IMG/VR virus record: IMGVR_UViG_2703718835_000005
DNA length: 3,888 nt
Reading direction: 5' to 3' (one strand)
DNA from: a virus
Lineage: Duplodnaviria > Heunggongvirae > Uroviricota > Caudoviricetes
In this document: positions 1-3,888 of the stretch, one piece after another
How the letters are laid out: every line of letters starts with the position of its first letter
How positions within the stretch are numbered: position 1 is the first letter of the stretch
Made by a program: the position numbers and the translations under genes
The notes under the pieces: generated by a model
Database searches by the model: none
Told to the model about the DNA's origin: nothing
The model's input: only the letters and a program-made list of their open reading frames with translations

Positions 1-1032
1 TCAAAAAATTGCTATTGATGTTGGTAGTGTTGCCAGCGGATTAAACCGTAATGCAGTTTCCAGGTGATCCGGTGCCAGATGTGCGTAACGCATAGTCATT
101 TTTATGTCGTGATGTCCGAGGATTTTTTGCAAAGCAAGGATATTTCCACCCGACATCATGAAATGCGCCGCAAACGTATGGCGCAGAACGTGTGTCAGTT
201 GACCGCGAGGGAGCACGATAGACGTTTTTTCCATCACGGATAAAAATTGAAAATAGCAGTCTGTAAAGAAATTGAACCCATCAAGCGCCATGATCTCTTC
301 GTAAAGCTCTTTACTGATAGGGATGCTTCTGTTTTTCTTCCCCTTCGTTCTTACAAAGGTAATTCGGTATTTGGTCACTTGCGAGCGGGTAAGATTTATT
401 GCTTCTCGCCAGCGTGCGCCTGTGCTTAGGCATATCTTGACTACCAGTGCCAGAATTGGGTCCTGACGTTTGCAATCAGCCAGCAGTTCAACAATCTGCT
501 CATGGGTAAGCCATGCCATCTCTTTTTCTGCGATGGTGAATTTTCGCATGTTCTCCAGTGGGTTCGGATACGACCATTCACCCAGGCGGGATAGTTCGCT
601 AAAAACACTACTTAGATAGCTTTGCTCTAGGTTAATGGTGACCGGGCTTGCTCCTTTCTTCCATTTCTCGCTGAAGTAGATCTCACCTGTCAGGCGTTTA
701 TCTCGATAGTGGGCAAACATTTTAGAGGTTAGATCAGTTGCAAGGGGATTGCCCAGAGCGTCAACCATCAGCAGCAATTTGTCATAGACATGCTGCCCAG
801 CAGTCAGTGATTTACCATGTAGTTTGAACCATAGCTCAACCACGTCTTTCAGTGTTCGACGATCCACTGATTCACCTAGCCAGGGCTTTGCTTCGGTTTC
901 TTCCATCGTGTGACGCTCAAAAGCCAGTGCTTCGCCTTTGGTGGCGAATTGTTTACGCACACGACGCCCACTACGTCCGGCGGGGTAACATTCGCAAAGC
1001 CATTTTCCTGTGGTGAGTTTTCGTACAGCCAT
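1..1032 (-). CDS. int: Tyrosine-type site-specific integrase (P2/186-family phage integrase), 343 aa from the ATG at 1032-1030; stop codon at 3-1
   Basis: Seen in translation: N-terminus MAVRKLTTGKWLCECYPAGRSGRRVRKQFATKGEALAFE is typical of P2/186-type integrases; tyrosine recombinase motifs are present (LSTGARWREA, HVLRHTFA, ILGHHDIKMTMRYAHL with the catalytic Tyr). On the - strand GGAGGG (complement of 1041-1046) lies 8 nt upstream of the ATG at 1032. The ORF track extends to 1110 (MYGRS...) but that 26-aa extension has no RBS and would contain the candidate promoter/LexA box, so the shorter start is preferred. Confidence 0.9.
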   Translation of the reverse strand: MAVRKLTTGKWLCECYPAGRSGRRVRKQFATKGEALAFERHTMEETEAKPWLGESVDRRTLKDVVELWFKLHGKSLTAGQHVYDKLLLMVDALGNPLATDLTSKMFAHYRDKRLTGEIYFSEKWKKGASPVTINLEQSYLSSVFSELSRLGEWSYPNPLENMRKFTIAEKEMAWLTHEQIVELLADCKRQDPILALVVKICLSTGARWREAINLTRSQVTKYRITFVRTKGKKNRSIPISKELYEEIMALDGFNFFTDCYFQFLSVMEKTSIVLPRGQLTHVLRHTFAAHFMMSGGNILALQKILGHHDIKMTMRYAHLAPDHLETALRFNPLATLPTSIAIF

Positions 1033-1056
1033 AAAAAATGCCCTCCAATAGAGAGC

Positions 1057-1085
1057 ATTTTTACTGTATGTATAACCAGTGTCAA
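1057..1085 (-). promoter_or_regulatory. Candidate sigma70 promoter reading leftward into int: -35 TTGACA (complement of 1080-1085), 17-bp spacer, -10 AAAAAT (complement of 1057-1062)
   Basis: Seen in sequence: perfect consensus -35 hexamer; the -10 is weak but keeps the critical A at position 2 and T at position 6. The predicted start (~1050) lies just upstream of the int RBS (1041-1046). The LexA-like box fills the spacer. Function is inferred. Confidence 0.3.
1062..1081. promoter_or_regulatory. Candidate LexA (SOS) box TACTGTATGTATAACCAGTG (CTGT-N8-CCAG core)
   Basis: Seen in sequence: 16/20 identity by hand to the E. coli LexA consensus TACTGTATATATATACAGTA, with CTG and CAG triplets at the correct spacing and an AT-rich centre. 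A CCAG right half occurs in the natural uvrB box as I recall it. It is the only CTGT-N8-CAG-like element I found in the window, and it sits in the spacer of the candidate int promoter. Confidence 0.45.
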
Positions 1086-1220
1086 TGTATGAAATACTGC
1101 GACCATACATCTCACTGAAGCCATAATGAAGTAGGCTATTCTTTTTGCTATGTGATCATGTAACTTTTGCGGTTAACCTGTGGCTCATTTTTATTTTAGG
1201 CGCAGATATAAAAGCAAAAG

Positions 1221-1412
1221 TTATCGTGAGTTTTTAGTACAGATTTTTTTGGATTTACTAATAGTTCCATCATTGCAAACGAATTTGCCATCTGAGGTAC
1301 AGTGAGAAACACCTCCCTTTTTCCCTGAGCAGGGATAATTTCTAGCATAGGTAGCTAGTGGGTTTAATAACAAAGAACATGACAAAACCACAAAAAATAC
1401 CTTACCAAGCAT
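1221..1412 (-). CDS. Small secreted cysteine-rich protein (63-aa precursor; predicted signal peptide, ~40-aa basic mature peptide with 4 Cys); lysogeny-expressed moron candidate
   Basis: Seen in sequence: ATG at 1412-1410 preceded by GGGAGG (complement of 1418-1423) with a 5-nt spacer; the start is only 15 nt downstream of the cI stop, same strand. Translation [23 protein letters not shown]|[40 protein letters not shown] has a short n-region, hydrophobic core and AxA-like signal peptidase I site (TYA). Region is AT-rich (~37% GC by hand count). Function unknown. Confidence 0.6.
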
Positions 1413-1427
1413 AATTTCCTCCCGGTA

Positions 1428-1997
1428 CTATTTAACATACTTGACTGTTAAACTTATAATTTTACCAATTATTTCAATGTCTTCTATCTTGCATTCGAAG
1501 GCTCTGTTTCCACCCTCGACGAAGATTCTTCCACCGGGTAAACGAGTAATGTCACGGATCGTTATTTCGCCATCAATACTTATTACCCATTTACCATCAC
1601 GTATATCATCAAATTCCTTATCACAAATAAATTCAGAATTATTATCTGTGATTACAAAAAGATTCTTGAATGTCGACGGTAGAAATTCTCTATCGAAAAT
1701 ATAAAAACCGTCTTCACACAAGGCCCCATCAGATAATACATATTTAGCAACTTCCATAGTATTTGTATTACCTGAAGTTTGCTTTGAACCATGCCCGGTT
1801 GTGAGCCAATTAAGCGAGGTGCCTGTTTCAAGGGCGCACTGGATTACCCATTCTGCTGGGAATGAGTCACGCATGTAGCGTGTGGCGAGTGTACTTTTAG
1901 AGATTCCTAAATGATCGCACAACGCCTGTCGAGTCTTGAATCCATAAGCTTCTACCATGCGCTCTATGGCGCCTCGTCCGCCTTTCTCCAAATTCAT
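1428..1997 (-). CDS. cI: Phage 186-type CI immunity repressor (N-terminal HTH domain plus C-terminal oligomerisation domain), 189 aa from ATG at 1997-1995
   Basis: Seen in translation: N-terminal HTH-like segment (AYGFKTRQALCDHLGISKSTLATRYMRD), and a C-terminal region (IRDITRLPGGRIFVEGGNRAFECKIEDIEIIG) compatible with 186 CI architecture as I recall it. GGAG (complement of 2003-2006) lies 5 nt upstream of the ATG at 1997; the GTG at 2003 used by the ORF track would overlap that RBS. Position is divergent from the apl/cII operon and upstream of int, as in phage 186. Confidence 0.8.
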   Translation of the reverse strand: MNLEKGGRGAIERMVEAYGFKTRQALCDHLGISKSTLATRYMRDSFPAEWVIQCALETGTSLNWLTTGHGSKQTSGNTNTMEVAKYVLSDGALCEDGFYIFDREFLPSTFKNLFVITDNNSEFICDKEFDDIRDGKWVISIDGEITIRDITRLPGGRIFVEGGNRAFECKIEDIEIIGKIISLTVKYVK

Positions 1998-2021
1998 GGT
2001 CACTCCAAGTGAACTTTTATC

Positions 2022-2050
2022 TTGACGATTTCACTGTGCGATCGTATGTT
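2022..2050 (+). promoter_or_regulatory. Candidate lytic promoter pR: -35 TTGACG (2022-2027), 17-bp spacer, -10 TATGTT (2045-2050), reading rightward into apl/cII
   Basis: Seen in sequence: good -35/-10 match with optimal spacing, located in the 125-bp cI-apl intergenic region with predicted start near 2057. The face-to-face pL expected from the phage 186 model could not be placed confidently. Confidence 0.45.
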
Positions 2051-2077
2051 TATGGTGTTCACAAAATACAAACGATC
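2040..2077. promoter_or_regulatory. Imperfect 38-bp palindrome (arms GATCGTATGTTT 2040-2051 and ATACAAACGATC 2066-2077, 10/12 complementary) overlapping the pR -10 and start; candidate repressor (CI and/or Apl) operator
   Basis: Seen in sequence: dyad centred at 2058/2059; each arm starts with a GATC Dam site (2040-2043 and 2074-2077). The operator role is inferred from its position over the promoter. Confidence 0.35.
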
Positions 2078-2122
2078 CGTATTCGTCCTGATTAATCATC
2101 ATTAAACGAGGAATGTTGCATC

Positions 2123-2344
2123 ATGAGACCTAACATTTCAATCACTCTTACCACGCCTCATGTGACTATTGAACGCTATAGCGAGCTGACAGGGCTATCC
2201 ATCGATACCATCAATGACATGTTAGCTGATGGACGCCTTATCCGTCACCGTCTGCGCAAAGATAAAAAACGCGAAAAAGTGATGATCAACATAGCAGCAA
2301 TGACCGTTGATGCGCTTTCAGAATGCAATCTAAACCTTAATTAG
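2123..2344 (+). CDS. apl: Apl/Cox-like small HTH protein (excisionase and switch-repressor position of phage 186 Apl), 73 aa
   Basis: Seen in sequence: first gene of the rightward operon, divergent from cI; GAGGAA (2108-2113) lies 9 nt upstream of the ATG at 2123; translation contains an HTH-like segment ([25 protein letters not shown]) and a basic tail. Identity rests on position and size; I recall 186 Apl as longer (87 aa). Confidence 0.6.
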
Positions 2345-2376
2345 TTCGATTCTGAAATACATCAGAGGCATTGACC

Positions 2377-2403
2377 ATGTTTGATTACCAAGTTTCCAAA
2401 CAT
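2377..2403 (-). promoter_or_regulatory. CII-type operator: inverted repeat ATGTTTG (2377-2383) / CAAACAT (2397-2403), half-site centres 20 bp apart; candidate CII-activated establishment promoter pE reading leftward toward cI
   Basis: Seen in sequence: perfect 7-bp inverted half-sites separated by 13 bp (two helical turns centre to centre); the left half-site is the cII start codon itself (ATG TTT G). From my recollection of phage 186, CII binds ATGTTTG half-sites spaced two turns apart at pE. No good -10 is visible leftward (weak TATTTC, complement of 2354-2359), which fits an activator-dependent promoter. Confidence 0.55.
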
Positions 2404-2886
2404 CCACATTTTGATGAAGCCTGTCGTGCATTTGCACTGCGCCACAATCTGGTGCAACTGGCAGAACGTGCAGGCATGAATGTGCAGATTCTGCGGAACA
2501 AGCTGAACCCAGCTCAGCCTCATTTATTAACCGCACCAGAAATCTGGCTGCTTACCGATCTGACTGAAGATTCAACGCTGGTAGATGGTTTTCTGGCACA
2601 GATTCATTGTCTGCCATGTGTACCGATTAATGAGGTGGCAAAAGAGAAACTGCCACATTACGTCATGAGTGCAACCGCAGAGATCGGGCGTGTTGCTGCA
2701 GGTGCGGTGTCTGGCGATGTAAAAACCTGTGCCGGTCGTCGTGATGCTATCAGCAGCATTAACTCTGTAACACGACTGATGGCGCTGGCGGCTGTTTCAT
2801 TGCAGGCCCGTTTACAGGCTAATCCTGCGATGGCGAGTGCAGTTGATACCGTGACTGGCCTCGGTGCTTCATTCGGTTTGCTGTGA
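2377..2886 (+). CDS. cII: Phage 186-type CII lysogeny-establishment transcriptional activator, 169 aa from ATG at 2377
   Basis: Seen in sequence: AGAGG (2364-2368) lies 8 nt upstream of the ATG at 2377; the ORF track's TTG at 2371 is less likely. The 169-aa length matches my recollection of 186 CII; HTH-like segment [25 protein letters not shown]; gene order apl-cII as in 186. Confidence 0.8.
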
Positions 2887-2893
2887 GGTGCTT

Positions 2894-3094
2894 ATGCTGA
2901 CGAAAGAACCATCATTTGCATCGCTGCTGGTAAAACAAAGTCCGGCAATGCACTACGGTCACGGCTGGATCATGGGTGAGGATGGTAAACGCTGGCATCC
3001 GTGCCGTTCGCAAGATGAATTATTGGCAGAACTATCAACGAAAAAACGGGGGAACAAATGGCTATTGAAGGCGCTGCGGCGACTGTTCCATTAA
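2894..3094 (+). CDS. Small early-operon protein, 66 aa (in the position of phage 186 fil); function unknown
   Basis: Seen in sequence: ATG at 2894 is 8 nt after the cII stop (TGA 2884-2886), with GAGG (2885-2888) 5 nt upstream. Translation MLTKEPSFASLLVKQSPAMHYGHGWIMGEDGKRWHPCRSQDELLAELSTKKRGNKWLLKALRRLFH. The GTG at 2864 used by the ORF track would overlap the end of cII and has no RBS. The fil assignment is by synteny only. Confidence 0.5.
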   Translation: MLTKEPSFASLLVKQSPAMHYGHGWIMGEDGKRWHPCRSQDELLAELSTKKRGNKWLLKALRRLFH

Positions 3095-3399
3095 GCCCCG
3101 GTGAACGCCTGAATGGACTTAATCACATTGCGGAGTTAAGGGCGAAAGTATTTGGCCTGAATATTGAGTCAGAGCTGGAGCGGTTTATTAAAGATATGCG
3201 TGATCCACGGGATATCAATAATGAACAAAATAAACGGGCACTGGCTGCTATATTCTTTATGGCAAAAATTCCAGCTGAACGTCATAGCATCAGCATTAAT
3301 GAGCTGACCACTGACGAAAAGCGGGAGCTGATTAAAGCAATGAATCATTTTCGTGCAGTGGTGAGCTTATTTCCCAGACGGCTAACCATGCCGAATTAA
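3058..3399 (+). CDS. Early-operon protein, 113 aa (in the position of phage 186 dhr); function unknown
   Basis: Seen in sequence: GGGGG (3048-3052) lies 5 nt upstream of the ATG at 3058; the start overlaps the 3' end of the preceding ORF by 37 nt in a different frame; TAA stop at 3397-3399. The dhr assignment is by synteny only. Confidence 0.6.
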   Translation: MAIEGAAATVPLSPGERLNGLNHIAELRAKVFGLNIESELERFIKDMRDPRDINNEQNKRALAAIFFMAKIPAERHSISINELTTDEKRELIKAMNHFRAVVSLFPRRLTMPN

Positions 3400-3466
3400 C
3401 CAACTAATGAAATTAATGGCGTAAACCCGCCGGGCATCCCTTTATCTAAATTCAGGAGAATTGATT

Positions 3467-3700
3467 ATGCGTAATATTGAAACCCTCTCGACTAAAACCG
3501 GACCGGATGACGCAGGGCTTAATATTTTACTGACAGAGGCTCGTCTGGAAGAACGCCGGGCAAGGGCTGAAGCAATGGCAGCTCGCCTTGATAGCCTGGC
3601 GTGTCATATAACATCCCGTCAGCTAAACCACGTGGAAGCGGCAGAACTGCTGCGTGTGACTGCTGAAGCAATCCAGAACGAAGCGCAGGAGATCCACTAA
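3467..3700 (+). CDS. Hypothetical early protein, 77 aa, predicted helical and Ala/Arg/Glu-rich
   Basis: Seen in sequence: AGGAG (3454-3458) lies 8 nt upstream of the ATG at 3467 (the track's TTG at 3461 is less likely). The TAA stop (3698-3700) overlaps the next gene's ATG (TAATG), indicating translational coupling. Confidence 0.6.
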   Translation: MRNIETLSTKTGPDDAGLNILLTEARLEERRARAEAMAARLDSLACHITSRQLNHVEAAELLRVTAEAIQNEAQEIH

Positions 3701-3888
3701 TGGCTGATGCAATGGATCTCGTACAGCAGCGCGTTGAAGAAGAACGCCAGCGCCATATCCGTGCTGCCCGTGCCAAAACGCCGGGCGTGTCCCGCGTGCT
3801 TTGCGTTGAGTGTGAAGCGCCAATTCCGCCAGCACGCCGCCGTGCCATTCCGGGTGTGCAGCTTTGCATTACCTGTCGGCTTTGTTGA
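3700..3888 (+). CDS. DksA/TraR-family C4 zinc-finger protein (phage TraR-like RNA polymerase secondary-channel binding factor), 62 aa
   Basis: Seen in translation: CVECEAPIPPARRRAIPGVQLCITC is a Cys-x2-Cys-x17-Cys-x2-Cys finger with the IP..RR..P.V..C signature of the zf-dksA/traR family (compare F-plasmid TraR CEECGNPIPEARRKIFPGVTLCVEC, from memory). Acidic N-terminal helix (MADAMDLVQQRVEEERQ). ATG at 3700 overlaps the upstream stop; TGA stop at 3886-3888 is the window end. Confidence 0.8.
   Translation: MADAMDLVQQRVEEERQRHIRAARAKTPGVSRVLCVECEAPIPPARRRAIPGVQLCITCRLC

Follow-up and report, generated by a model that had tools for sequence, protein, structure and literature searches.

The window analysed here, a stretch of 3,888 nucleotides from the virus record IMGVR_UViG_2703718835_000005, closes with two overlapping open reading frames, the second of which raises the question of whether a TraR/DksA-type regulator of RNA polymerase can end only three residues past its zinc finger. 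The first-pass annotation of this DNA had described that reading frame as a compact 62-aa zinc-finger protein that would bind the secondary channel of the host RNA polymerase, and had proposed that its tightly coupled, uncharacterized 77-aa neighbor may be a cofactor. Both the short length of the one protein and the role of the other are addressed below, in the context of the prophage from which the DNA comes.

On the evidence of its sequence, the window is the int-cI-apl-cII-fil early and immunity region of a phage-186-like prophage (P2 family) of E. coli. Profile matches across the window comprised int, a 186-type CI, a Cox/Apl-like excisionase, CII, Fil, DUF5347, DUF2732, and TraR, and the gene order was the same as that of the 186-type early lytic operon, with int and cI reading leftward and with apl, cII, fil, and the following genes reading rightward as far as DUF2732 and the TraR homolog. 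Bases 1-3877 showed only 2 mismatches in 3877 positions to a prophage of E. coli WL7562 that adjoins rcdA/ybjJ. In that genome the two genes in question are annotated as 'DUF2732 family protein' and 'TraR/DksA family transcriptional regulator', and they are followed by dam and a replication endonuclease gene. The same pair was present at 80-100% identity in 1239 complete E. coli genome records and in 56 phage genomes. In particular, the two genes are standard members of the early lytic operon, located 3' of a putative tR1-like terminator and 5' of the dam and replication (A) genes.

The tR1-like intergenic element lies 5' of the gene pair at 3417..3446 on the plus strand, and its 21-nt core, TGGCGTAAACCCGCCGGGCAT at 3417-3437, was identical to the annotated tR1 of phage 186. 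The predicted fold of this element was no better than that of shuffled sequence, and a terminator scan gave no match there; we infer a terminator function from phage 186 only, in which tR1 is said to be anti-terminated in early lytic growth. Other features of the region were observed in addition. The DUF5347 gene (3058-3399) takes the place of phage 186 dhr, which encodes an inhibitor of host DNA replication, and shares 37 nt with fil, which is read in a different frame. Between int and cI, a 63-aa ORF on the minus strand (1221-1412), with 35.9% GC and a signal-peptide-like N-terminus, matched NCBIfam NF007463 (1.3e-33) and phrog_6000, and the source contig lists Pfam YdcA for it; its features resemble those of a cargo ('moron') gene carried within the immunity region. 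Just beyond the window, where the prophage ends, rcdA and the integrase gene are separated by an 89-aa hypothetical gene (L002 3974-4243, L001 2274-2543) in the position that Orf69 has in phage 186.

The DUF2732 gene occupies 3467..3700 and the TraR/DksA-family ORF 3700-3888, both on the plus strand, and they encode 77 and 62 aa, respectively. As had been read from the window at the outset, the two share a single base in a TAATG stop/start overlap (3698..3702 on the plus strand, with TAA at 3698-3700 and ATG at 3700-3702), and we found that a one-base overlap was kept in 80 of 80 related IMG/VR loci, as TAATG in 61 and as TGATG in 19, as well as in phage 186. Each gene carries an AGGAG Shine-Dalgarno sequence on the plus strand 8 nt before its ATG; that of the DUF2732 gene, read from the sequence, is at 3454..3458 (ATG at 3467), and that of the TraR-family gene is at 3687..3691, within the 3' end of the DUF2732 gene. 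Translational coupling of the two genes is plausible. The earlier impression of a GC-richer block was likewise accurate: the GC content of 3467-3888 was 55.9% versus 44.3% for 1-3466, and this was the maximum among the 422-nt stretches of the window, with 0.09% of sliding windows reaching that GC. A foreign origin of the pair was considered as an explanation for the high GC and was rejected, since the neighboring genes cII (50%) and A (53%) have a GC near that of the pair and the AT-rich part is the immunity region. The DUF2732/TraR pair is an ordinary gene pair of a common prophage, and it is already annotated.

The 62-aa ORF proved to be correctly placed in the DksA/TraR C4 zinc-finger family. 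It matched Pfam zf-dskA_traR (PF01258) with E = 1.1e-8 and 35.4 bits against a cut-off of 24.9, and phrog_54 ('DksA-like zinc-finger protein') with E = 1.3e-23 over positions 1-61 of 75; the TraR family model TIGR02419 was passed with 60.0 bits against a cut-off of 59.7, a narrow margin that is due to a match extending no further than profile position 59 of 64. The zinc finger reads C35-x2-C38-x17-C56-x2-C59, with cysteines that align with those of TraR and YbiI. [quoted passage not shown] Position 8, the A8 of the motif, is Val in the window lineage and Ile (I8) in P2 Orf82. R46/R47 align with R48/R49 of TraR, where R48 is directed to the rim helices and R49 to beta'Si3 (PMC9239242), and they were invariant among 13 homologs. 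When compared with solved structures, the intact 75-aa sequence of this gene matched YbiI (3.8e-11) and F-plasmid TraR (2e-9), in alignments that run from the finger through the C-terminal helix. The AlphaFold2 model of the 62-aa remnant kept helix 2-25 and the finger, and its best fold match was TraR in RNA polymerase (6n57_M), with YbiI and DksA also matched. Judged by these comparisons, the gene is a member of the TraR subfamily by descent, and the window copy lacks the C-terminal helix, which is a functional element.

The end of the similarity to relatives coincided with the appearance of insertion-sequence DNA. Alignments to all relatives (the 1239 E. coli records and the 56 phage records) ended at window base 3877, and the last 11 bases of the window mismatched the otherwise near-identical WL7562 sequence at 9 of 11 positions. 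The remnant of the TraR-family gene (3700..3877 on the plus strand) is identical to the WL7562 75-aa gene (WP_000752619.1) and consists of codons 1-59 and the first base of codon 60, with D3, D6, R46/R47, C35, C38, C56, and C59 kept. It is followed at 3878..3888 by 11 bases that open a terminal inverted repeat of the IS903 group (IS5 family), with GGCTTTGTTGAATAAATC at the breakpoint. The source contig LONV01000002.1 (GCA_001576295.1) ends 6 nt past the stop codon, and its final 17 nt, GGCTTTGTTGAATAAAT, are the start of both the left and the right inverted repeats of IS903B (PMC10569121). The same 17 nt were located at both ends of an element with an IS5-family transposase gene on an E. coli plasmid (L003), and an element with these ends was found in 1948 of 5426 complete E. 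coli genomes.

Because the repeat begins right at the break, within codon 60 (C/GG), it supplies Arg60, Leu61, Cys62, and the TGA stop codon. The intact allele continues from ...CITC with QEIAELKGKHYNGGAV, encodes 75 aa, and overlaps dam, whereas the window allele ends in ...CITC-RLC-stop. We propose that the 62-aa ORF is, with high probability, an insertion-truncated TraR-family allele of a 186-like prophage, in which the last 16 residues were cut off by an IS903-group element within codon 60, an insertion that is known here from one junction, namely 17 nt of the IS end at the end of a draft contig. Insertion into codon 60 would have generated a truncated fusion protein that takes its last residues and its stop codon from the inverted repeat of the IS. 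The predicted 9-bp target duplication is TTACCTGTC (3869-3877), and a simple IS903 insertion would give one junction of TTACCTGTC followed directly by GGCTTTGTTGAATAAATC and another of ...GATTTATTCAACAAAGCC followed directly by TTACCTGTCAGGAAATCG, with the 9 bp duplicated.

Two other explanations of the short protein have to be weighed against such an insertion. The 62-aa protein could be a natural compact variant of TraR that functions as it stands and ends three residues past the finger, as the first-pass annotation had taken it to be; its ORF is intact from ATG to TGA, the cut-offs of Pfam and TIGR02419 are passed, and D3, D6, R46, R47, and all four cysteines are retained. However, the final 11 bases are IS903 inverted repeat and are absent from all relatives, and the allele sits on a single contig, the exact 62-aa protein having been found only on LONV01000002.1 in the whole collection. 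The intact length was 75 aa in WL7562, in phage 186, and in 80 of 80 IMG/VR loci, and P2 Orf82 has 74 aa. Moreover, a tail as short as that of the window protein was seen in 0 of 82 homolog representatives with a complete finger, the part past the last Cys being at least 14 residues long in all 82 and exactly 16 in 68 of them, and the residues that are lost are invariant (Q60, E64, and H69) or nearly so (I62, K66, and Y70) among 13 homologs. The naturally compact protein of the earlier reading gave way to a gene of 75 aa that is interrupted past codon 59, where an IS903-type end adds R-L-C-stop, and we consider the chance that it is a genuine compact variant to be close to nil.

The other concern is the assembly itself, as the junction would be an artefact if IS903 bases from elsewhere had been joined to a chimeric contig end in a genome that really has the intact 75-aa gene. 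Just 17 nt of the IS are present, at the very end of a draft contig, and the junction was seen in no other genome: it was found in none of the complete E. coli genomes, in which no record reaches beyond 3879, and it gave 0 matches in the GTDB species representatives and 0 in the 80 IMG/VR loci. Nevertheless, a contig break just inside a repeated IS is the usual sign of a real insertion in short-read assembly, and a random chimera would rarely break precisely where the inverted repeat begins, as is the case here. In another assembly, an independent IS5-family insertion in this gene, ~12 nt upstream of the break, further indicates that such events occur here. An assembly artefact is thus improbable, and insertion of an IS903-group element in codon 60 is the explanation that we prefer.

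The independent insertion was observed in L086 2160-2293 (GCA_013341665.1, JABUVV010000133.1), where the TraR-family gene gives way to GGAAGGTGCGAATAAGCAGGTCATTTCTTCCCAAGCTGACTCG, a sequence similar to the right inverted repeat published for ISKpn26 (IS5 family), and a 70-aa fusion protein (P0012) results. Several other aberrant products of this gene were noted. P0001 contains an internal 24-residue duplication, and P0002 and P0014 have foreign tails with a common 'PLIIS', which may come from the end of another mobile element. P0010 joins DUF2732 and TraR in frame, apparently through a deletion between short GCAATGG repeats, and P0071, which has 89 aa, is named 'DUF2732 family protein', and matches the TraR query, may be another DUF2732-TraR fusion.

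The consequences of losing the C-terminal end can be considered from what has been established for the intact family. Secondary-channel binding and reprogramming of host transcription, the mode of action that had been assigned to the family from the start, have been demonstrated for the P2 counterpart: purified Orf82 competes with DksA for RNA polymerase and binds at the DksA site, inhibits rrnB P1 in the absence of ppGpp with an IC50 of 250 nM, and complements a dksA null strain (PMC9239242). Binding in the secondary channel with altered initiation at rRNA and amino-acid promoters has been demonstrated for TraR and lambda Orf73 as well. P2 Orf82, which is without A8, is less active than TraR, and the authors tied this lower activity to the missing A8; TraR, lambda Orf73, and P2 Orf82 are all active as purified single proteins in vitro and when expressed alone in vivo (PMC9239242). 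The same authors proposed that, in lytic growth, host transcription of rRNA and ribosomal-protein genes is turned off by the phage homologs (PMC9239242). In cryo-EM, TraR was resolved into an N-terminal helix (2-27), a globular domain (28-57), and a C-terminal helix (58-73) (PMC6970531). The C-terminal helix and the globular domain contact the beta-lobe/Si1 and drive an 18-degree rotation, and with RNA polymerase lacking Si1, the activation by TraR is nearly gone, its inhibition is reduced, and its binding is weaker (PMC6970531; PMC9239242).

[quoted passage not shown] As a result, the promoters for rRNA and ribosomal proteins would be expected to be inhibited in lytic growth, for which neither ppGpp nor a partner would be needed. 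Without the conserved C-terminal helix, the truncated protein would probably be weakened or inactive. The remnant still has D3, D6, R46, R47, and the four cysteines and passes the family cut-offs, and it might retain some channel binding. In addition, we assume that dam and A, which lie downstream, would be expressed less because of the insertion, probably leaving the prophage defective.

The second question raised by the locus is that of the 77-aa neighbor. This ORF matched Pfam DUF2732 (PF10809) at 3.4e-29, with 101.1 bits against a cut-off of 25 and over residues 1-76 of 77, and it matched phrog_128 at 1.5e-33; its counterparts are NP_052284 of phage 186 (77 aa) and Orf80 of P2. The AlphaFold2 model of the DUF2732 protein was a two-helix hairpin (helices 13-50 and 55-75, pLDDT 79.6). 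A comparison with solved structures gave no sequence match and no fold match better than E = 1.8, and a search of the literature on DUF2732 found no relevant literature. Searching with the DUF2732 protein returned 449 clusters; the best 120 listed were at least 84% identical to the window protein, and the named sources among these 120 were enterobacteria, for example Escherichia, Salmonella, Klebsiella, and Citrobacter. In the phage-genome protein search, DUF2732 was found in 56 records, all of enterobacterial phages, versus 170 for the TraR homolog, which indicates a faster divergence of DUF2732. The occurrence of DUF2732 is limited to enterobacterial prophages of the P2/186 type.

From the one-base overlap, the DUF2732 protein had been thought to be a functional partner of the TraR-family protein, that is, a cofactor or modulator. 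Adjacency with a one-base overlap was indeed kept in 80 of 80 close relatives and in phage 186, both genes belong to one operon segment in P2 too, and the predicted helical hairpin would have a shape compatible with protein-protein contacts. The TraR homologs are nevertheless fully active alone, as stated above for TraR, lambda Orf73, and P2 Orf82, and the elements that carry F TraR and lambda Orf73 appear to be without DUF2732, as judged from the 56-record phage search and not from a direct search of F or lambda. In P2, moreover, Orf81 separates DUF2732 (Orf80) from Orf82, and stop/start overlaps are the rule along the whole operon; the DUF2732 model also has no informative structural match. 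The cofactor proposal gained no support from these comparisons, and a functional partnership of the two proteins seems very doubtful to us. A split-DksA arrangement, in which DUF2732 would give the missing coiled-coil helix in trans, was also considered and was rejected as unsupported, since there is no DxxDxA-type motif at the hairpin loop; it is further countered by the activity of TraR homologs alone and by the presence of another P2 gene between DUF2732 and the TraR homolog.

A more far-reaching role for the locus could take one of two forms: either the 62-aa protein is a separation-of-function allele, or DUF2732 modulates the TraR homolog or RNA polymerase in 186-type lytic growth. If the former were true, the 62-aa protein would enter the secondary channel by virtue of its retained Asp tip, Arg pair, and finger without engaging the beta-lobe/Si1, and it would be a competitor of DksA or of GreA/GreB, not a TraR-like regulator. 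The evidence supports neither a separation-of-function allele nor a DUF2732 modulator, and we see only a slight chance that one or the other is correct.

Taken as a whole, the TraR-family assignment and the mechanism ascribed to the family are right, and they are already known. Annotations of the pair exist for phage 186 and for ~1,240 complete E. coli genome records, the P2 counterpart was characterized biochemically in 2022, and the locus has little importance beyond its correct annotation. What it offers is a caution, in that the eye-catching short length of the protein very probably stems from an insertion sequence at the end of a contig rather than from a novel minimal form of TraR. The window allele and the second IS5-family insertion illustrate, at most, the decay of prophages by insertion sequences, and the two insertion alleles would be ready-made C-terminal truncations for probing the role of the TraR C-terminal helix.

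Among known systems, IS903/IS903B (IS5 family) accounts for the end of the contig, the terminal 17 nt of which are identical to both published inverted repeats; the source contig shows the tip of the element only. As for the TraR-family gene, the intact allele resembles F-plasmid TraR (6N57, 5W1S) and lambda Orf73 in its N-terminal helix with D3/D6, in its C4 finger with an Arg pair, and in a C-terminal helix ending in KHY. F-plasmid TraR is, however, a distant relative (the match covers residues 24-70, with E = 2e-9), the spacing from the Asp motif to the finger is two residues shorter in the protein of this prophage, and the window copy differs further in being without the C-terminal helix (TraR residues 62-73). 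P2 Orf82 (NP_046793.1), the TraR counterpart in the early (Pe) operon of P2, is 44% identical and is also without A8, but it is full length, with 74 aa and the C-terminal helix, and Orf81 lies between Orf80 (DUF2732) and Orf82. Also among the close systems is that of phage 186, the early lytic operon of which encodes, 3' of tR1, a 77-aa (NP_052284.1) and a 75-aa (NP_052285.1) protein in genes that overlap by one base. The 186 pair is annotated as 'unknown function; not essential' and is followed by an exonuclease-like gene, whereas dam follows in the counterpart prophage of WL7562, and the window copy differs from that of 186 in the insertion sequence that appears to interrupt it past codon 59. 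The TraR homologs themselves are 61% identical, with D3, D6, and the four cysteines kept, and the C-terminal Q-E-I-x-E-L-K-x-K-H-Y of phage 186 is conserved with the intact allele.
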